NCBI GenBank assembly: GCA_026397205.1
Contig: JAPLVH010000014.1
Coordinates: 1-51,477 of the forward strand
Direction: 5' to 3'
DNA: 51,477 nt
Source: Candidatus Berkelbacteria bacterium
Lineage (GTDB): Bacteria; Patescibacteriota; UBA1384; XYA2-FULL-43-10; CAINNR01
Part shown: in pieces, positions 5,481 to 51,477 of the stretch
Position numbering within the stretch: the stretch's first letter is position 1
Layout of the letters: each line of letters begins with the position of its first letter
Program-made: the position numbers and the translations under genes
The notes under the pieces: model-generated
Seen by the model: only the letters and a program-made list of their open reading frames with translations
Told to the model about the DNA's origin: nothing
The model's database searches: none

Positions 5481-5990
5481 TTAATTTCCCTTCCCCAAAA
5501 ATTTCTCGGCTTCCCTCCAAAATTCCTTTTCATTTCTTTCTTCATTTTGCTGGCGTCTGACAATTTTTTCGTTTGAGGAAATATTGCCGCTGCCAACTCT
5601 TTTCTGTTCGAGTGCTTCCATTTGATTGTGAAGCATTTTGCCTTCGCCTTTTAAGAGAAATATCGCCCGATCAGCAATACTCACATCACCCAAATTATTT
5701 CGCCGGCAATATTCAAAATCACCCAAAAGTTCTTCTAACGACCCTTTAGAAAATCCGAGAAACTCAATATATTCTTTCGTTGATGCCCGCGAAAATCCCT
5801 CTTCGATATTTCGAACTCCGGAGCGTGCCGACCGAAGCATGTGGTCGGCGGTGTCCATCATTTTCTGACCGGTTTCTGGATGATATTTCGGAAGCGTTTT
5901 GACAAACTTTTCCGTCAGCTCAAAAATTTCATTGGCTTGTTTCCAAGTCAACAAATTTTTATATCCTAACGGATTCCTTGGCACAAACAT
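5481..5990 (-). CDS. four-helix-bundle protein (23S rRNA intervening-sequence protein family) with a C-terminal extension
   Basis: YKNLLTWKQANEIFELTEKF...ADHMLRSARSGVRNIEEGF...GSLEELLGDFEY matches the family pattern as I remember it. Confidence 0.7.
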   Translation of the reverse strand: MFVPRNPLGYKNLLTWKQANEIFELTEKFVKTLPKYHPETGQKMMDTADHMLRSARSGVRNIEEGFSRASTKEYIEFLGFSKGSLEELLGDFEYCRRNNLGDVSIADRAIFLLKGEGKMLHNQMEALEQKRVGSGNISSNEKIVRRQQNEERNEKEFWREAEKFLGKGN

Positions 5991-12074: not shown

Positions 12075-12728
12075 TCATAATTTCTGTTTTCGCAAATACT
12101 CATCAAACAATTTTTGGAAAAAATCGGCAATTTCTTTTTTTGAATATTTTCTGGTCAAAAGTGGTTTTAGGTAATCAAAATTTTCCAAACTTTTTGTCAG
12201 GCGGGAAATTAAAATCGCCGGATCAATTTGCTCCTCAAATTTTTCTTTGACACCGGAAATCAATTTCTCGAATGTAAACTTTTTATCCTGCAAAATAATA
12301 AACAGATCAAAAGCATCTTTAACTTCGCTTCGCTGATAGGCCAACAAAGTTTTAGAAATTGCGATGTCAAGAAGCGATTCGACCTTGAAGCCGGAAACTT
12401 CCATCACTTTTCCGATTTTCGGAAACGGATAATAGACAAATTCAAGTTTTAATTGATCGCTGTCGGATAATTCGAAAACATACTGGAAGCGATTCATTCG
12501 GCTGAAACTTTTTTTGTTTTTCGCACCCAGAGATTTTTTAATCTGGTTTGACAAAGTTGTCAAAACATCAACCGGTGGCAAATCAAACAAAATGATGTCG
12601 ATGTCCTCCGACTTCCGGTGATGCAAATAAATTTCTGACAACGCCGTTCCGCCACCCCAAACCGCAATATTTTCAATTGGCGATTTGAAAATTTCTTTAA
12701 GCACCAGTTTTTGCTCTTTTGTTAGCAT
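12075..12728 (-). CDS. nucleotidyltransferase AbiEii/AbiGii-like toxin family protein
   Basis: 217 aa with GGGTALSEIYLHHRKSEDIDI, the typical DUF1814/AbiEii N-terminal motif. Confidence 0.7.
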   Translation of the reverse strand: MLTKEQKLVLKEIFKSPIENIAVWGGGTALSEIYLHHRKSEDIDIILFDLPPVDVLTTLSNQIKKSLGAKNKKSFSRMNRFQYVFELSDSDQLKLEFVYYPFPKIGKVMEVSGFKVESLLDIAISKTLLAYQRSEVKDAFDLFIILQDKKFTFEKLISGVKEKFEEQIDPAILISRLTKSLENFDYLKPLLTRKYSKKEIADFFQKLFDEYLRKQKL

Positions 12729-13751: not shown

Positions 13752-13775
13752 GATTGCCACGTTCCTCGCAATGAC
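13752..13775. repeat. half copy of the GTCATTGCGAG palindromic element family
   Basis: gattgccacgttcctcgcaatgac matches the right arm of the elements at 48805 and 49255. Confidence 0.7.
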
Positions 13776-13953
13776 AGCCAGAACACAAAACCGCCCAATT
13801 TCTTGGTGCGGTTTTTTGGTGTCATACTGAATCCGTTCGACAATCTCAAGACAGGTTTTTCAGGATCTTATAAACTTCTGGGATTCCGAAATAAATTCGG
13901 AATGACAACCGTGTTTTGCTTACGGCTTACTGGCTTACAAGCTTATGACTATT

Positions 13954-29306: not shown

Positions 29307-30605
29307 TTAAACTTTCTTTGTTTCGTCCCAATTGTCACCGATTCCAACTTCAACTTCTGTTGGCACCGAAAGTTTGACGACATTTTCCATCGTCTCTTTC
29401 ATAATTTTTGCGACACTCTCCGCATCTTTTACCGGCGCTTCGACAATAACCTCATCATGAACAGTCAAAATAATTTTTACTCCACCATTTTGACTTTTGA
29501 TTTTTGATTTTTGATTTAAAACTTGCATTTGATCCGCCAGGCGGATCAAGGCAAGTTTCAGTATCTCCGCCGCTGTTCCCTGCACCGGCGTGTTTATCGC
29601 CATTCTCTGTGCCGATTCCGATTTTATTCGGTCGGCCGAATTTATCTCCGGCAGTTTCCGCTGAAATCCAAACAGCGTTTCGACATAACCTAATTTTTTG
29701 GCTTGTGTAATCTGCTCCTCGCAATATTTTTTAATGCCGCCGTGAACGGCAAAATAGCGGAAAATATATTCCGCCGCCGATTCGCGGGCGATGCCCAAAG
29801 TTTGCGACAAACCGTATGGGCTGATGCCGTAAATGACTCCAAAGTTGACGGTTTTCGCCAGTCGCCGCTGATCGTTGGTGATTTTTTCAATCGGCACGCG
29901 AAATAATTCTGATGCTGTTCGCGAATGAATGTCAACGCCAGAGCTGAATGCTTCAACCATCGCCTTGTCGCCAGACAAACAAGCAACGACTCGGAGTTCG
30001 ATTTGCGAATAATCGGCCGAAATTAATTTACAATTTTTTTCGGCAATAAAAGCTCGGCGAATTTCCGGTCCGAAATCGCCTTTGATTGGGATATTTTGCA
30101 AATTCGGATTTGCCGATGTCAGCCGGCCGGTTCGGGTGTCGGTACCGAAATGGGTGTGAAGCCGAAAATTTTCGTCAACGATTTTCGGTAGCGGCTCTAA
30201 ATATGTTGACACTAATTTTGAAAGTTCGCGATATTCCAAAATTTTGCCGATGATCGGATTTCCGCCACGGAGTTTTTCCAGCTCCGACGCGCCAGTGGAA
30301 AATCCCGACTTTGTTCGCTTGAGTTCGCCGGTTGGCAATTTCATTTTGGTGAATAATATTTTCGCCAATTGCGTCGGCGACGCGACATTGAATTCCTCAC
30401 CAGCATTTTTCTGAATTTCCTTCCTTAACTTTTCACTTTTAACTTTTAACTTTTCACTAAGTCGCTTAAGCGACTTGACATCAACTTTTATTCCGACATC
30501 CTCGATCAACCTTAAAACCGGCGCCAATTTCTTGTCAATTTCCTCCGATTTAATTCTCGGAATTTTACAACCCAATTTTTCCGCCCGCGCTAAAATATTT
30601 TTCAT
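29307..30605 (-). CDS. polA: DNA polymerase I, polymerase domain only (no 3'-5' exonuclease domain)
   Basis: 432 aa with the family A motifs SADYSQIELRV, RRLAKTVNFGVIYG and VHDEVIVE. Confidence 0.9.
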   Translation of the reverse strand: MKNILARAEKLGCKIPRIKSEEIDKKLAPVLRLIEDVGIKVDVKSLKRLSEKLKVKSEKLRKEIQKNAGEEFNVASPTQLAKILFTKMKLPTGELKRTKSGFSTGASELEKLRGGNPIIGKILEYRELSKLVSTYLEPLPKIVDENFRLHTHFGTDTRTGRLTSANPNLQNIPIKGDFGPEIRRAFIAEKNCKLISADYSQIELRVVACLSGDKAMVEAFSSGVDIHSRTASELFRVPIEKITNDQRRLAKTVNFGVIYGISPYGLSQTLGIARESAAEYIFRYFAVHGGIKKYCEEQITQAKKLGYVETLFGFQRKLPEINSADRIKSESAQRMAINTPVQGTAAEILKLALIRLADQMQVLNQKSKIKSQNGGVKIILTVHDEVIVEAPVKDAESVAKIMKETMENVVKLSVPTEVEVGIGDNWDETKKV

Positions 30606-30639
30606 AATTATTCTAAACGGCTTAAGTTTCTTAAGATAT

Positions 30640-31686
30640 TTATAAAAGTTTTAGTTGTTCGTCTTTCTTTGGAATTTCTGATTTTGAATTTGTTTGTGAT
30701 TTGCCCACAGGGTCACTTCGTAGATTTCTTGTGATTTGCGATTTTTCGCCCTCAAATCTCCGGAGGAGCGATTGAAATCCCAACTCCTCAAAAAGTTCCG
30801 TCAGTTTGATTTTATCATACTCGCCGAAACGACATTTTTCCAGATCAAAATCAATCGGCACATCACGATAAATCGTCGCCAACTTCTGCGACATAAAAGC
30901 CTGATCACGATTCTCAATCAATAAATTTAATATTCTCGGTTTTATTTCTTTTTGATTTTCATCTTTGTCATTTTGATCTTTAATATTTGATTTTTGATCT
31001 ATATACGCATATAACTTTTCAAGCGAATCAAACTTCTGAATTAAATCTGTCGCCGTTTTACTGCCGATTCCCGGAACACCGGGAATATTGTCCGAAGCAT
31101 CGCCGGCCAGCGCTTTTAGATCAATAAAATCAGCCGGATCCAGATTATACTCTCGTTTGATTGTGTCGTGATCAACAATTTGGAGTTGACTCAAACCCTT
31201 GCGCAAACTATAAACTTTAACATTGCCATTTATCAGCTGATAAATATCCTTATCCCCGCTTACTATATATATGTCAATTCCGCTATTTTTCACTTTTAAT
31301 TTTTCACTTTTAATTTTCTCGGCAATTGTGCCGAGAATATCATCGGCCTCAAAAGTTTCCTTTTCGTAAATCGGAATTCCCATCGTCTCAACGATTTGTT
31401 TGACTCGGGGAATTTGATCGTAAAGTTCCTGATCGGCCTTAACTCGCGTCGCTTTGTAATCGGCGAACTCTTTGTGGCGAAAAGTCGGCCCGGCCAAATC
31501 GAACGAGCAAGCGATAAATTCCGGCTTCAAATCCTCCAAAACTTTAATCAGCGTGGTTGTAAAACCGTAAGTCGCGTTCGTCGGCTCGCCAGCACGCGTC
31601 GTCATCGTTTTCGGCAAAGCGTGATACGCCCGATGAATTATCGCATTACCATCAATCAAGACCAGTTTTTGATTTTCCTCTGTCAT
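30640..31686 (-). CDS. 5'-3' exonuclease (Pol I N-terminal FEN-like domain) as a separate gene
   Basis: LIDGNAIIHRAYHAL, SGDKDIYQL and an H3TH region (GDASDNIPGVPGIGSKTA). The C-terminal tail is repeat-derived (RSDPVGKSQTNSKSEIPKK). Confidence 0.9.
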   Translation of the reverse strand: MTEENQKLVLIDGNAIIHRAYHALPKTMTTRAGEPTNATYGFTTTLIKVLEDLKPEFIACSFDLAGPTFRHKEFADYKATRVKADQELYDQIPRVKQIVETMGIPIYEKETFEADDILGTIAEKIKSEKLKVKNSGIDIYIVSGDKDIYQLINGNVKVYSLRKGLSQLQIVDHDTIKREYNLDPADFIDLKALAGDASDNIPGVPGIGSKTATDLIQKFDSLEKLYAYIDQKSNIKDQNDKDENQKEIKPRILNLLIENRDQAFMSQKLATIYRDVPIDFDLEKCRFGEYDKIKLTELFEELGFQSLLRRFEGEKSQITRNLRSDPVGKSQTNSKSEIPKKDEQLKLL

Positions 31687-35332: not shown

Positions 35333-35373
35333 GTCATTGCGAGCCATCCGCCTTTGGCGGAGGCGCGGCAATC
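35333..35373. repeat. left half of a GTCATTGCGAG-family element
   Basis: gtcattgcgagccatccgcctttggcggaggcgcggcaatc. Confidence 0.7.
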
Positions 35374-42811: not shown

Positions 42812-42837
42812 GTCATTGCGAGCGAAGCGCGGCAATC
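42812..42837. repeat. left half of a GTCATTGCGAG-family element
   Basis: gtcattgcgagcgaagcgcggcaatc. Confidence 0.7.
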
Positions 42838-47774: not shown

Positions 47775-47809
47775 GTTGAAGTAAATCCAGAACCGAAAGG
47801 GATGATCAA

Positions 47810-48160
47810 ATGGCGTCCGCTTCCAACACTGCGAACAATCATGAAGATCTGGAGGGCTACCCGCAGTACACCATTGACGACATCGTAGACCTCTTCGATG
47901 GACATCGAATTGGTCCCGGTTGGCCTGATGCTCCGTCAAGCAGGATCATTGAACAGCTCGTGGCGATAGGCGTCAGGCGTTGTGCCAGCTTGTATTACAC
48001 CTTGCTCGCGATGACATATGCCGGACAACTCGCACCTGAGGTAACAGCAGGCACGACACCGTACTTTGGCGCGGTGATGGTCGATCTAACGGAAGCCATC
48101 ACGCGACTCGGCGGGACTGTCATCCCGATGAAGGATGTCATCCTTCCCGAAGGGACATGA
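47810..48160 (+). CDS. hypothetical protein with atypical codon usage, orphan cassette
   Basis: Promoter at 47746..47774 and terminator at 48207..48241. Uses CTC/CTG, ATC, CAG, TAC and GAC codons. G+C is 33 of 60 in 47881..47940. Confidence 0.6.
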   Translation: MASASNTANNHEDLEGYPQYTIDDIVDLFDGHRIGPGWPDAPSSRIIEQLVAIGVRRCASLYYTLLAMTYAGQLAPEVTAGTTPYFGAVMVDLTEAITRLGGTVIPMKDVILPEGT

Positions 48161-48206
48161 CAACGCGAATCCTGAGGGGCGACTGGTAAGTTTTCACATC
48201 GACATT

Positions 48207-48504: not shown

Positions 48505-50145
48505 TCATCCATTCCTGACGAGAGCTTTAAACCACCGACTCTGTAATATCAAATAAGCGATGAAAACAATTGTGATTATGAGCAAAACCAAAAGCCTGAC
48601 TCGAAGTTGATATTCGCTCTGAACAAATGGGATTAGCAAGATTGCGACGATGGTAAAAAGTTCGGCTATTTTGATTTTGTCCGAGAAAATCGCGGCGATT
48701 ATTCCACCGACGGCAAATCCACCAAGCGCCAACGGTCCGAGAATTATTCCGACCGATATTGGTAAAGCAATTGTCATCGACAAAATTAAATTTTTGTTTT
48801 GCTTGTCATTGCGAGCGGAGTGAAACGGAGCGCGGCAATCTTTTTGATAGATTGCTTCGTTCCTCGCAATGACGAGAGAAGCAAGATAATAAAATCCGCC
48901 GGCACCGAGCAAAAGTCCGGCTAAAAGATGCGGATCGGCAAGAGTCAAATTGGTCCCAACAATCTTTTGACTAAAAATTATTCCGAAACCGATAATTAGG
49001 CCGATCGAGCCAAATTGCCAAAAATTCTTGAACCGAACCGTGGCATGGTTTAGTTGGGAAAAATCAGAAATAGCAATTTCCGCCGTCTTGGCAATTGTTT
49101 TTTGCCCACTTTCAAAATCCAAATAGCTGTTTCGAACGAGAGAAATTAGGAAAATTGGGCTGGTAGAAATTAAGGCAATGGCAACTCCAAAATATCCTAC
49201 AAGAAAATATCCGAGCCAAATTGCTCCAGCCAAAATCAACGGCGCAATTATTTTGTCATTGCGAGGAGGCTTTGCGACGTGGCAATCTTTTTGATGGATT
49301 GTGTCGTTCCTCGCAATGACCAAAGTCAAAATTCCGGCGACGACACCGACGATAACGGTGAGAAAAATTCTCACGGATGGAATTTCAGCCGGAAGCAAAA
49401 ATCGGCTGGAAAAATATCCGGCGATGATTATCAGAATTGCGCTAATAGCCGAGATTTTAAACCAAAAAGTTTTTTGATTCCCGATTCTGGCTAGCAAGTT
49501 GGCGATAACGACGCTGATTGCGCCGGCGGCAAAAATTACTAAGGGAAATTGCAACACAAGATTATTTGCTGGATAAAAAATTTTGGCGATTAAAATTGCG
49601 ATGACTGGAAGCGAAATTAGCGACGATTCGAGCGCGCCGCTGGCGATGGCGATGATCGTCGCACCAAGCGCCAAAGCGACGAGAGGATAAAAATCGCTGA
49701 AAATTAAAGTTGTGCCGAGAACGGCAATAATTGTGATCGCAACTGGAAAAATTGCGACAAGAAGGCTGACGTTTCGGGAGATTTTTTTGGCGACATTTTC
49801 CTTCCCGGATTTGAGTAGTGCAACCGATCTGCCGGCGATAACTGATGTGAATCGCATCCAGAAAAAACTCGAAATGATGATGGAAATTACACCAACGACG
49901 AAAGAAATTGCTGCTTGCCAGCTGATTAAGTATAAAATTGCAACCGTGACGATTGCCAACAGCGGAGAAAGATCTTTAGCTGACTTCCAAACTTCGGCCG
50001 ACTTTGTTTTTTCAAAACTATTGGCGGCGTCCGAAAGATTTTTTGCCCCAGTCGACATTTTTTTTACCGACCGAAACTTCAAAATCCCTATTATCATCCC
50101 CACTGCTCCCAACCCAAAAAACGAAATGATTTCGATGTTGCGCAT
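48505..50145 (-). CDS. polytopic membrane protein (about 14 TM helices) carrying two in-frame palindromic-repeat insertions; faint resemblance to membrane pyrophosphatases
   Basis: 546 aa. The repeat-encoded peptides VIARNEAIYQKDCRAPFHSARND and VIARNDTIHQKDCHVAKPPRND lie between hydrophobic segments. Confidence 0.7.
   Translation of the reverse strand: MRNIEIISFFGLGAVGMIIGILKFRSVKKMSTGAKNLSDAANSFEKTKSAEVWKSAKDLSPLLAIVTVAILYLISWQAAISFVVGVISIIISSFFWMRFTSVIAGRSVALLKSGKENVAKKISRNVSLLVAIFPVAITIIAVLGTTLIFSDFYPLVALALGATIIAIASGALESSLISLPVIAILIAKIFYPANNLVLQFPLVIFAAGAISVVIANLLARIGNQKTFWFKISAISAILIIIAGYFSSRFLLPAEIPSVRIFLTVIVGVVAGILTLVIARNDTIHQKDCHVAKPPRNDKIIAPLILAGAIWLGYFLVGYFGVAIALISTSPIFLISLVRNSYLDFESGQKTIAKTAEIAISDFSQLNHATVRFKNFWQFGSIGLIIGFGIIFSQKIVGTNLTLADPHLLAGLLLGAGGFYYLASLVIARNEAIYQKDCRAPFHSARNDKQNKNLILSMTIALPISVGIILGPLALGGFAVGGIIAAIFSDKIKIAELFTIVAILLIPFVQSEYQLRVRLLVLLIITIVFIAYLILQSRWFKALVRNG
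48805..48873. repeat. complete 69-bp GTCATTGCGAG...CTCGCAATGAC palindromic element, in frame within a CDS
   Basis: Terminal inverted repeats GTCATTGCGAG/CTCGCAATGAC and internal GGCAATC/GATTGC. The length is divisible by 3. Confidence 0.85.
49255..49320. repeat. complete 66-bp GTCATTGCGAG...CTCGCAATGAC palindromic element, in frame within a CDS
   Basis: Same termini as the 48805 element. The length is divisible by 3. Confidence 0.85.
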
Positions 50146-50400: not shown

Positions 50401-51237
50401 ATGACGTCCGGACGACTGCTGTTAGGACAACCTGCAGTACAGCTGTTCCTCGAGAAACTCGGCATCGAAGCGGATCCGTTCCGCGAACTTGACGAGTTCA
50501 AAGCGGCCTGCGAGCAGGCCAACCCAAGGTACAAGGGCGGGCGTGATCTGGTCCGCTTCCAGTTGGAAGCTGACGAGACCACCTGGCCCAGTGGCGTCAG
50601 GCAAGCCACCATGAACCTCGCCAACAAGCTCGGAATGACCCATGGCGAGACACCACTTATCGGCGAATGGGATCTGATCATCGCCCTCGGTGGTGCCCGG
50701 CGTTCGCCCCTGCACCGCGCCTGCTACGCGACGCAGTCGATCATTGAGAGCCGCGCAAGTGGCATGCTCGTGATCGCTGGCTCGACACGGAAACTCTACG
50801 ACCCCGAGCACCCGGAGATCATGAGCCCTGAGCAGAAGCAAGTGCAGGACTTCGCGCCTAACGCGATGACCGAGTACGATCTCTGCGTCGGCACCCAGTC
50901 GACGATCGAGAAGAAGTACGAGTGCTGGCCAGGGATTTCGATCACGACGATCTGTGAAGAGAACCCCCGATCCGGCAACGACGGCGTCATCGACAAGGTA
51001 ATGTCCGATCTCGGCAACGACCAACCGCTTCGTGTCGCCGCCGTCACGACCCGCATCTACGTCATCAGCCTCGAGCTGGACATGGCGCGGGCGGCCAAGC
51101 GTCACGGATGGCGTAACTTCGCCGCCGCTGGTCACGCCTCTGATCCCGAGATGGTCTTCAACCGGACCATCAGCACCTACCTGTCGGAATGTCTGACCAC
51201 CTGTCGCAAAGCGGCAATCGCCGCCGCCGAGGTCTGA
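50401..51237 (+). CDS. hypothetical protein with strongly atypical codon usage; possible DUF218/YdcF-like fold
   Basis: AAGGAGG lies 7 nt before the ATG. DLIIALGGARR...VIAGSTR...RVAAVTTRIYVISLELDMARA loosely recalls DUF218 motifs. G+C is 38 of 60 in 50461..50520. Terminator at 51270..51306. Confidence 0.65.
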   Translation: MTSGRLLLGQPAVQLFLEKLGIEADPFRELDEFKAACEQANPRYKGGRDLVRFQLEADETTWPSGVRQATMNLANKLGMTHGETPLIGEWDLIIALGGARRSPLHRACYATQSIIESRASGMLVIAGSTRKLYDPEHPEIMSPEQKQVQDFAPNAMTEYDLCVGTQSTIEKKYECWPGISITTICEENPRSGNDGVIDKVMSDLGNDQPLRVAAVTTRIYVISLELDMARAAKRHGWRNFAAAGHASDPEMVFNRTISTYLSECLTTCRKAAIAAAEV

Positions 51238-51269
51238 TCCGCTCCCGCATCACCCGACCCAAACCTAAA

Positions 51270-51306
51270 ACCGCCTCCCAGCGTATCGGGAGGCGGTGCT
51301 TTTTTT
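51270..51306 (+). terminator. intrinsic terminator ACCGCCTCCC-AGCGTATC-GGGAGGCGGT + T7
   Basis: Perfect 10-bp stem plus a T-run. Confidence 0.85.
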
Positions 51307-51318
51307 ATTTAGCTCAAC

Positions 51319-51477
51319 TTATTTCTGATCAGGAATTTTTTTTATGATAATATACCCATTACCCCCAAGATGACCCGGTTCGTAAAGTCGGTCTCTGTCG
51401 GAGTGCCTTTCAATCAGAATTTCACCATCACTCTCAAGTTTTGAAATTAATTCAGCAAAAGCTTTTGACACCTCACC
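51319..51477 (-). CDS. partial ORF (C-terminal 52 codons) running off the right window edge
   Basis: The reverse complement reads GEVSKAFAELISKLESDGEILIERHSDRDRLYEPGHLGGNGYIIIKKIPDQK*. Function unknown. Confidence 0.35.
   Translation of the reverse strand, partial: GEVSKAFAELISKLESDGEILIERHSDRDRLYEPGHLGGNGYIIIKKIPDQK

Follow-up and report, generated by a model that had tools for sequence, protein, structure and literature searches.

Two in-frame palindromic repeat dimers in the membrane protein gene of a probable CPR bacterium

The host gene and its two elements

The stretch of DNA analysed here, called the window below, is 51,477 nucleotides long and comes from a probable ultra-small (CPR) bacterium. 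Palindromic repeats lie at two places inside one of its minus-strand genes, and the host gene and the two elements within it are as follows.

48505..50145, minus strand: intact host coding sequence of 546 aa, an open reading frame with GAAGGA upstream of its ATG
48805..48873, minus strand: element A, in which two repeat units form a 69-bp inverted dimer, recognized by its sequence, inverted repeat, fold, translation and the insert it makes in the homologue profile
49255..49320, minus strand: element B, a 66-bp inverted dimer, recognized on the same kinds of evidence

A DUF3006 gene lies 20 nt downstream of the host coding sequence, and the closest named relatives of the host protein are Berkelbacteria/Patescibacteria MAG proteins. 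The protein scores 28.9 bits against the Pfam H_PPase model (PF03030), for which the cut-off is 29.7, and its homologues score 34-207 bits, above the cut-off, against the same model. Foldseek searches with the predicted structure returned the membrane-integral pyrophosphatases (M-PPases) of T. maritima and P. aerophilum as best matches (E 2.7e-9, TMq about 0.6). A profile of the host subfamily aligned to PDB entry 8b37 with an E-value of 2.5e-37, and the fold also matches 4av3. In the alignment to 8b37 the catalytic segment GGG..KAAD.GADLVGK..DNVGDNVGD is missing from the subfamily profile. The host protein is a divergent form of the membrane-integral-pyrophosphatase fold, which in M-PPases has 16 TM segments, and is probably non-catalytic.

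Independent assemblies of three further sequencing runs contain the locus together with both elements, differing from it at 0-2 nt. Because these three contigs carry the same locus, an assembly artefact or chimera is ruled out.

Read along the plus strand, element A consists of a long unit (48805-48840), an apical loop (48841-48849) and a short unit (48850-48873), and element B of a long unit (49255-49287), a loop (49288-49296) and a degenerate short unit (49297-49320). The termini GTCATTGCGAG/CTCGCAATGAC are common to both. Element A is built as 11 + 19 + GCAATC + 9-nt loop + GATTGC + 7 + 11 = 69 bp and element B as 11 + 16 + GCAATC + 9-nt loop + GATTGT + 7 + 11 = 66 bp, and the two are 88% identical across their right-hand 48 nt. 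The first-pass annotation, which had reported these coordinates and sequences, the shared termini and an internal GGCAATC/GATTGC pair, was correct to the base.

The ends of element A form an inverted repeat pair, and the inverted repeat of element B measures 17 nt at 94%. Both elements fold into long hairpins on either strand (z from -4.2 to -5.7), and none of 200 shuffled sequences folded equally well. For element A the two strands gave -38.8 and -27.6 kcal/mol (z -5.7 and -4.2), the sense strand being the one at -27.6; for element B the z-scores were -5.3 and -5.7, the sense strand giving -26.5 kcal/mol at z -5.7. Complementarity between the arms is expected here because the dimers are inverted duplications, and by itself it is no evidence of selection on structure. 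The outer stems of both palindromes pair at 11 of 11 positions, which is unusually well kept for neutral coding sequence; this preservation could reflect a recent insertion or some selection.

The terminus GTCATTGCGAG occurs exactly seven times when both strands of the window are counted: at 48805+, 48873-, 49255+ and 49320-, and again at 13775-, 35333+ and 42812+. Allowing up to one mismatch raised the number to nine, where dinucleotide shuffles predict 0.89, and none of 100 such shuffles gave as many.

In-frame reading and placement in the protein

Both elements lie inside the minus-strand reading frame 48505..50145 and are read in the same frame, and their lengths are multiples of 3, as stated earlier. 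Element A encodes VIARNEAIYQKDCRAPFHSARND (residues 425-447) and element B encodes VIARNDTIHQKDCHVAKPPRND (residues 276-297). As the first-pass annotation had also proposed, each peptide sits between hydrophobic segments, which span residues 249-283 and 297-329 around element B and 407-427 and 451-489 around element A.

Homologues of the host protein were collected by a full HMMER scan; a word-indexed protein search gave the query and one weak PPase. In this set, which holds no orthologue above 30% identity, all ten aligned homologues have gaps at both element sites, and a profile built from homologues only shows residues 279-294 and 426-447 as the sole internal insert runs. The AlphaFold model has pLDDT below 50 at residues 281-296 (element B) and 429-448 (element A), and these stretches fall between helices 257-279 and 297-316 and between helices 405-434 and 443-469, respectively. 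Each dimer is an insertion relative to all homologues, and each occupies a hydrophilic loop that links two transmembrane helices of this Patescibacteria-type M-PPase-like protein. The host frame is intact and colinear with its homologues along its full length. The earlier proposal of a Rickettsia-like, tolerated in-frame palindrome insertion in a membrane protein is supported: homologous segments in relatives or a pseudogene would have spoken against it, and the homologues lack the segments and the coding sequence is undisrupted.

Three of the six combinations of frame and orientation are free of stops in both elements. Frame 2 always terminates in TGA, and frame 3 of the plus orientation holds internal stops. 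The frame in use, which yields peptides of the form VIAR...RND, is the most hydrophilic of the open ones (KD -1.1 and -0.85), and each peptide has four K+R against three D+E. Each element adds a mildly basic loop of 22-23 aa that is probably disordered. The positive-inside rule and a helix count from the model, whose pLDDT is 69, suggest that both loops are cytoplasmic. Canonical M-PPases carry extra segments of about 50 aa at both sites in the alignment to 8b37, so the two sites are structurally permissive. For the protein, both insertions are most likely neutral in effect.

The repeat unit and its distribution

Three further copies of the family lie between genes elsewhere in the window.

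13752..13775, minus strand: solo unit TGTC-ATTGC-GAG-GAACGTG-GCAAT-C, between convergent genes and adjoining a terminator-like hairpin
35333..35373, plus strand: solo unit with a large internal hairpin (CCATCCGCC-TTT-GGCGGAGG), 36 nt downstream of the YchF gene
42812..42837, plus strand: solo unit TGTC-ATTGC-GAG-CGAAGCGCG-GCAAT-C, intergenic, upstream of GroEL

The core of the unit at 35333..35373 folds at -11.4 kcal/mol. These copies had been noticed earlier as half copies; they are real, their coordinates were right, and complete solo units is a better description of them than decayed halves. Among the units of the window the tag is TGTC in four, CGTC in one and GGTC in two, and the tails are CTT, CTA and CCA. 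We also looked in the window for sister families (GTCATNNNGAG) and found none, the TGC family alone being present.

Collected more widely, the unit measures about 25-45 nt and reads YGTC-ATTGC-GAG-[mini-hairpin, often GCGNAGC]-GCAAT-C: a YGTC tag, a 5-bp stem ATTGC/GCAAT, a GAG bulge, a variable mini-hairpin and a C(C/T)N tail. The ATTGC...GCAAT stem is invariant throughout all units collected. The internal loop is GAG or GAA, the mini-hairpin has 2-7 bp and a 3-nt loop, and core length runs from 4 to 45 nt. The commonest cores among 855 units are CGAAGCGAA (91 units), CGCAGCGAA (70), CGGAGCGAA (30) and CGTAGCGAA (20); together with the preceding G these spell GCGNAGC, a stable DNA mini-hairpin motif (PMC13037366). 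Longer cores carry hairpins of variable sequence with GAA, AAA or TTT loops. Units are found singly, as tandem copies and as inverted dimers. Of 356 elements, 191 have C and 134 have T at position -1, which covaries with position +1, the pair being C..G in 163 elements and T..A in 93.

Identical 11-nt termini were found at more than 119 genome loci and more than 120 metagenome loci, both counts being lower bounds, and on 92 viral contigs. Their carriers include Bradyrhizobium, sphingomonads, Bacteroidota, Chloroflexota, Planctomycetota, Cyanobacteria, Rickettsiales (MAG loci L051 and L061), CPR bacteria and phage contigs. In all, the family was seen in at least eight phyla, on phage and prophage contigs and on megaplasmids. 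The 12-nt foot is identical to the base from Bradyrhizobium through CPR, and GCAATCCAG prevails among the alphaproteobacterial copies. The repeat crosses phyla and is not particular to this kind of genome.

Copies of the family are read in frame in other genes as well. With Pfam domains on both sides of the insertion, they occur in GMP synthase guaA (L024), acetyl-CoA synthetase acs (L134), MnmA (L156), an N6/N4 DNA methylase (L191), and Mu-like and SPP1-like phage portal proteins (L321, L329, L309). The VIAR...RND-type frame is the commonest in unrelated genes too, for example in guaA, portal and methylase genes. The in-gene copies listed are restricted to low-GC cases confirmed with Pfam. 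A general count of elements inside long open frames was dropped because high-GC genomes give long spurious frames, such as a 1314-aa "ORF" in Bradyrhizobium (L072) that is compositional junk. One family with identical termini enters both housekeeping enzymes and phage portal proteins in frame, in distant phyla.

Searches against family collections gave no name for the repeat. An Rfam scan at gathering thresholds of the window and 16 related loci matched no family, and an Rfam E-value scan of 48700-49400 gave chance matches to microRNA models far below threshold and nothing else. NCBIfam was searched at E up to 10 with eight queries, comprising the host protein and element peptides from the window, from L024/L191 and of family-typical form, with no match. 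An exact-string search of the literature returned unrelated primer matches only, with no name for the repeat family.

Known palindromic repeats and the origin of the insertions

Work of Ogata et al. from 2000 and 2002 reportedly describes the Rickettsia palindromic elements (RPEs) as palindromic repeats that lie in frame in many unrelated protein genes, their peptides sitting in surface loops compatible with function, and RPEs are said to be specific to Rickettsia. The elements of the window resemble them as palindromes read in frame in protein genes and absent from homologues, with in-frame copies of the same family in other genes. They differ in size, RPEs being about 95-136 bp long (PMC2267715), apparently in sequence, the element peptides giving no match in NCBIfam, and in spanning many phyla, whereas RPEs are described as Rickettsia-specific.

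The unit also resembles the CGTC-tagged REP superfamily, surveyed by Di Nocera, De Gregorio & Rocco (2013; PMC3733652), which counts Neisseria dRS3 as well as Rickettsia RPE-4 and RPE-6 among its members. According to the survey, such repeats carry an unpaired terminal CGTC tag at the foot of the stem (variants TGTC and CCTC), to which the YGTC tag corresponds; their stem starts A-T, T-A, as does ATTGC...GCAAT; and they occur as single units and as inverted dimers, as here. Both are strongest in Alphaproteobacteria (Bradyrhizobium, sphingomonads, Rickettsiales) and present in several phyla, lie mostly between genes near 3' gene ends with a minority in frame within genes, sometimes two per gene, and come with no cognate transposase, none being present here in the window or among 10 bracketed genes. 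The published stem is 8-9 bp with a loop of 4-5 nt in Table 1 of the survey, whereas our unit combines a 5-bp stem with a bulge and a mini-hairpin. The published 3-nt tail is mostly CCA; a CCA-type tail is found in most relatives, GCAATCCAG prevailing among alphaproteobacterial copies, and the window units have CTT, CTA and CCA. The authors allow that bulged, atypical classes may have escaped their survey, and they report CGTC repeats in 5 phyla, with CPR bacteria and phages going unmentioned in the passages cited here. The strings ATTGCGAG, CTCGCAAT, GCAATCC and CGTCATT were searched for in the supplements of PMC3733652 and none was present. By published description, the unit probably belongs to the CGTC-tagged REP superfamily or is its sister.

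The dimers also resemble REPINs, in which what replicates is apparently an inverted REP doublet that forms a long hairpin (Bertels & Rainey 2011; Quentin et al. 2018, PMC6006769); insertion occurs without target-site duplication and "double-foot" forms exist (PMC6006769). The canonical REPIN/RAYT system differs in having a GT[AG]G tag and a REP-flanked cognate RAYT (Y1 HUH), against a YGTC tag and no RAYT in the window. Intragenic copies have already been described for CGTC-tagged REPs, including RPE-4 and RPE-6 (PMC3733652), frame-preserving REP insertions are reported even inside tnpAREP genes (PMC6006769), and in-frame insertion of REP-type palindromes is documented well beyond Rickettsia (PMC3733652, PMC6006769). 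The event seen here is real and of an already documented kind. It shows clearly how a palindromic repeat "decorates" a protein in a genome of CPR/Patescibacteria type, a group that goes without mention in the cited passages of the REP/RPE survey (PMC3733652).

Direct repeats flanking 356 elements, examined at k = 2-5 and offsets 0-3, matched at random expectation, apart from slightly more matches than expected for k = 3 at offset 2 (11 observed, about 5.6 expected). A Pfam search of the 51-kb window for transposases found none, with no Y1_Tnp match among about 45 ORFs, and the 10 genes bracketed by inverted units are ordinary genes with no transposase among them.

On this evidence we think it likely that elements A and B, as inverted dimers, resemble REPINs and are built from a small, non-autonomous DNA repeat unit that forms hairpins. 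The copies would have spread as DNA through a single-stranded hairpin intermediate, served in trans by an enzyme that is of HUH/Y1 type or otherwise structure-specific, a route that fits the absence of target-site duplications and of a linked transposase. The conserved 12-nt foot and GCGNAGC core, with those same two absences, point to a mobilization that recognizes single-stranded DNA. Survival within a gene would be a filter effect: the gene would keep working only where the inserted length is divisible by 3, the frame entered is free of stops and the loop that is hit tolerates indels.

The similarity of the two insertions might instead mean that both loops do something useful on the cytoplasmic face, such as binding a metal or a partner, and are kept by selection. 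They share orientation and frame, and their peptides are similar (VIARN[DE].I[HY]QKDC....RND), with a common QKDC and a Cys and a His in each; the palindromes are intact, the gene is the same in four independent assemblies (0-2 nt differences), and the sites match functional cytoplasmic segments of canonical M-PPases that are lost in the host subfamily. We nevertheless find such exaptation unlikely, for the segments occur in no homologue and have pLDDT below 50, and the likeness of the peptides is explained by common DNA ancestry (88% over 48 nt). The same frame being commonest in unrelated genes points to a frame-tolerance filter more than to a specific function, and two copies would match in orientation and frame by chance in roughly one in 3 to one in 4 viable insertions.

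Neisseria Correia elements are MITEs that contribute coding sequence. So are the Coxiella QMITEs (PMC5896051), and such small non-autonomous inverted-repeat elements can lie inside ORFs. Elements A and B could be classical MITEs, derived by deletion from an insertion sequence whose terminal inverted repeats measure 11-12 bp, the DDE transposase that moves them being encoded at another place in the genome. Terminal inverted repeats that are perfect over 11 bp, the small size and the presence of several copies are in keeping with this, and a promiscuous IS family could account for the broad range of hosts. A MITE, however, has target-site duplications and a parent IS that can be identified, and neither was found here, duplications being absent at every offset in the 356 elements and transposases from between the inverted units. 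Single arms moreover stand free and in tandem, unlike MITE ends, and the outermost base pair covaries, so that the hairpin simply extends. This origin is very improbable. Slightly less credible still is a role at the level of RNA, in which the mRNA hairpin serves as a translational pause, RNase site or stabilizer, or is an excised intervening sequence whose peptides are never made. The predicted sense-strand hairpins are stable (-27.6 and -26.5 kcal/mol, z -4.2 and -5.7), and a role as RNA elements has often been put forward for REPs (PMC3733652). Against it, no Rfam family matches, the antisense strand folds more strongly, GCGNAGC cores are a DNA-specific stability motif (PMC13037366), the same family is in frame in many unrelated genes, and lengths that are exact multiples of 3 with an open frame would be needless in excised segments.

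Beyond the REPIN-like reading favoured above, we offer tentatively, as a doubtful extension, that the YGTCATTGCGAG-[GNA mini-hairpin]-GCAATC unit is a pan-bacterial ssDNA hairpin replicator, still moving, carried between phyla by phages and mobilized by a conserved host or phage enzyme. It is suggested by two intact copies in one gene of a reduced Patescibacteria-type genome together with copies in phage portal genes. If true, the movement of CGTC-type REPs could be tested in small genomes with few candidate enzymes, and such a genome would in any case be a good place to seek the mobilization mechanism. Annotators and structure predictors should also be aware that these repeats yield spurious ORFs and odd insertions, with VIAR...RND and SLRG...LAMT peptides.

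Two palindromic insertions within one intact gene

On its two strands the window contains exactly seven copies of the 11-mer GTCATTGCGAG; when up to one mismatch is allowed there are nine matches against 0.89 expected, and none of the shuffles gave nine. Four of the exact occurrences form the ends of two elements with shared termini, as the first-pass annotation had proposed.

Elements, host ORF and remaining GTCATTGCGAG occurrences in the window. A unit is the short hairpin repeat making up each dimeric element.
48505-50145 (-): host ORF, 546 aa
48805-48873: element A, 69 bp; peptide VIARNEAIYQKDCRAPFHSARND, residues 425-447
49255-49320: element B, 66 bp; peptide VIARNDTIHQKDCHVAKPPRND, residues 276-297
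13775 (-): GTCATTGCGAG in the solo unit 13752-13775
35333 (+): GTCATTGCGAG in the solo unit 35333-35373
42812 (+): GTCATTGCGAG in the solo unit 42812-42837

Both elements have the layout GTCATTGCGAG, variable core, GCAATC, 9-nt loop, GATTG(C/T), 7 nt and CTCGCAATGAC, are 88% identical to each other across the right-hand 48 nt, and fold into a long hairpin on either strand (z-scores of -4.2 to -5.7). They lie within the same minus-strand ORF in a single common reading frame, and the peptides they encode are hydrophilic with hydrophobic segments on either side; these two copies are open in three of the six possible combinations of frame and orientation, and the frame used is the most hydrophilic of the open ones. 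The same gene is found in three contigs from other sequencing runs, which differ at 0-2 nucleotides across 2.2-3.8 kb, so that the presence of the elements in the gene is not an assembly artefact.

A word-indexed protein search returned no close relatives of the host protein. HMMER, run in full against 1.84 billion representatives, gave about 20 homologues, mostly 500-650 aa in length and 25-35% identical, the nearest named ones being from Candidatus Berkelbacteria and 'Patescibacteria group' MAGs. In a MAFFT alignment both element-encoded segments are gapped in 10/10 homologues used, and when the host protein was aligned to an HMM made from these 10 homologues alone (overall score 233 bits) internal insertions of at least three residues appeared at 279-294 and 426-447 and nowhere else. 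Elements A and B are insertions relative to all homologues, and the first-pass reading of palindromic elements inserted in frame in one membrane protein is essentially right. The ORF is intact and colinear with the homologues through to its C-terminus, GAAGGA stands upstream of its ATG, and a DUF3006 gene begins 20 nt after it; it is therefore not a disrupted pseudogene. Both findings that would have spoken against the first-pass reading, homologues that carry the segments and a pseudogene, are absent.

The host protein and its surroundings

The host protein scores 28.9 bits against Pfam H_PPase, just below the threshold of 29.7 that its homologues exceed. The top 28 PDB matches of its AlphaFold2 model (pLDDT 69, pTM 0.68) are all membrane-integral pyrophosphatases, or M-PPases (for example 4av3, E 2.7e-9, TMq about 0.6), and the subfamily profile matches 8b37 (E 2.5e-37). 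The subfamily (P0003-P0019), of 500-530 aa and with the membrane-pyrophosphatase fold, is present in Berkelbacteria/Patescibacteria MAGs. When its profile is aligned to 8b37 the catalytic cytoplasmic segment GGG..KAADLGADLVGK..DNVGDNVGD is missing, and the subfamily is probably a non-catalytic M-PPase derivative, not an active pyrophosphatase.

Both element peptides fall in low-confidence loops of the model, with pLDDT below 50 at residues 281-296 (between helices 257-279 and 297-316) and 429-448 (between helices 405-434 and 443-469). In the 8b37 alignment both insertion sites are positions where canonical M-PPases have extra segments of about 50 residues, and they are indel-tolerant. Counting helices from an outside N-terminus and applying the positive-inside rule to the loops, both sites would face the cytoplasm.

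The other genes of the window are ordinary chromosomal ones (RecA, RecX, FtsK, RNase J, PNPase, S15, GroEL, EF-P, SSB, S6 and YchF), with no transposase among them. DNA polymerase I is encoded as separate 5'-3' exonuclease and polymerase genes (29307-31686, minus strand), which, with the gene for a 23S-rRNA-intervening-sequence protein (5481-5990, minus strand), is compatible with a CPR-type genome. A CPR/Patescibacteria origin of the window is likely. An AbiEii toxin gene lies at 12075-12728 (minus strand). The right end of the window (50600-51400) has a GC content of 0.57-0.61, up from about 0.43, and 47800-48199 has one of 0.55; ORFs 50401-51237 (+, 278 aa) and 47810-48160 (+, 116 aa) in these stretches have no Pfam match. 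An independent contig, L001, confirms the junction at the right end up to position 50818, so it is not a chimera, and the high-GC stretches flanking the M-PPase-like gene may be horizontally acquired islands.

A widespread repeat family

We scanned one genome per species with the pattern GTCATTGCGAG-N30-60-CTCGCAATGAC and found at least 119 genome loci; hosts among the loci listed include Bradyrhizobium, many Sphingomonadales, Bacteroidota, Chloroflexota, Planctomycetota, Deltaproteobacteria, Gammaproteobacteria, a cyanobacterium, Rickettsiales (Tisiphia), Berkelbacteria and Saccharibacteria. The same general pattern matches 92 IMG/VR contigs, a more specific one matches more than 120 metagenome contigs, and BLAST located the repeat on megaplasmids of Novosphingobium and Methylosinus as well as in prophage records of Helicobacter canis. 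The repeat belongs to a family spread over many phyla and is not a peculiarity of this genome.

What is repeated across loci is a shorter unit (855 copies collected, L004-L334) with the layout Y-GTC, ATTGC, GAG, variable core, GCAAT, C(C/T), which occurs alone, in tandem, or as inverted dimers as in the window. The three intergenic 'half copies' of the first-pass annotation, each with GTCATTGCGAG, are solo units of this kind, not halves. The one at 13752-13775 directly adjoins a terminator-like hairpin at 13776-13812 (AAAACCGCCCAA...TTGGTGCGGTTTTTT) with convergent genes on either side, in agreement with reports that REPs favour 3' gene ends. Unlike the usual solo and inverted-dimer forms, locus L103 (1851-2030) has six units as direct tandem repeats, which recur every 34-37 nt without unique spacers.

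With the preceding G, the four commonest cores among the 855 units are GCGAAGC (91 copies), GCGCAGC (70), GCGGAGC (30) and GCGTAGC (20), that is GCGNAGC, also noted for the solo unit at 42812-42837. GCGNAGC is a known, exceptionally stable DNA mini-hairpin (PMC13037366), which suggests that the structure of importance is one of single-stranded DNA, not of RNA. Longer cores are hairpins of variable sequence with GAA, AAA or TTT loops. The nucleotides that flank the 11-mer on its outer side covary at the two ends, being C..G in 163 of 356 elements and T..A in 93.

The loci sampled hold roughly 370 dimers. In-frame copies among them were confirmed by taking elements within long ORFs at lower-GC loci and checking the proteins with Pfam; the commonest frame of the confirmed copies is VIAR...RND.

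Genes with in-frame copies at other loci.
GMP synthase (L024): within the GATase domain match
Acetyl-CoA synthetase (L134): within the AMP-binding match
MnmA (L156): between two domains
N6/N4 DNA methylase (L191, 172-2160): intact copy after the methylase domain and a second, degenerate copy
Mu-like portal protein (L321, 1857-4055): between the portal and Mu F domain matches
SPP1-like portal protein (L329, 1720-3195; L309, 320-1891): within the portal domain match

The element is carried by phage and prophage genomes, which could spread it.

Known relatives and possible mode of spread

The family shares with the CGTC-tagged REP superfamily of Di Nocera et al. (PMC3733652) a CGTC/TGTC tag, a stem beginning AT, solo and dimer forms, predominance in Alphaproteobacteria, position near 3' gene ends and the lack of a transposase. 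The superfamily's CCA-type tail is present in most relatives, and the units of the window have the tails CTT, CTA and CCA. The stem and loop geometry of the unit differs from the published CGTC definition (8-9-bp stem, 4-5-nt loop), and the family is a probable additional class of that superfamily. The same source reports in-frame intragenic CGTC copies, at times two per gene, and equates Rickettsia RPE-6 with CGTC-1 and RPE-4 with CGTC-4, and Quentin et al. (PMC6006769) describe 'double-foot' REPs and REP insertions that preserve frame. In-frame insertion is already documented for REP-type repeats; new here are the lineage and the protein that act as hosts, along with the evidence for one family with base-identical termini across many phyla and phages.

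The elements have hairpin potential, and their repeat family comprises solo units, tandem arrays and dimers. They have no target-site duplication (356 elements) and no linked transposase, none being found between inverted units in 10/10 cases tested, and a classical MITE is a less well supported reading. We infer that they would spread via a single-stranded hairpin intermediate through a structure-specific enzyme acting in trans. A role at the RNA level, or excision, is likewise less well supported; no Rfam family matches the elements. Within a gene, copies would persist through a filter that acts on their length, their frame and the tolerance of the loop, with a presumably neutral effect on the host protein, a reading better supported than exaptation of the encoded loops.

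Sister repeats with the same frame and another stem triplet (TGTCATCCTGAGG...AAGGATC) adjoin units at L114 (2473-2530) and L142 (948-1010, 1113), and a Berkelbacteria trigger-factor ORF (L036, 5166-6425) that begins 'SLDFARDD' looks like a third sister family in frame; a broader GTCAT-NNN-GAG superfamily may exist.
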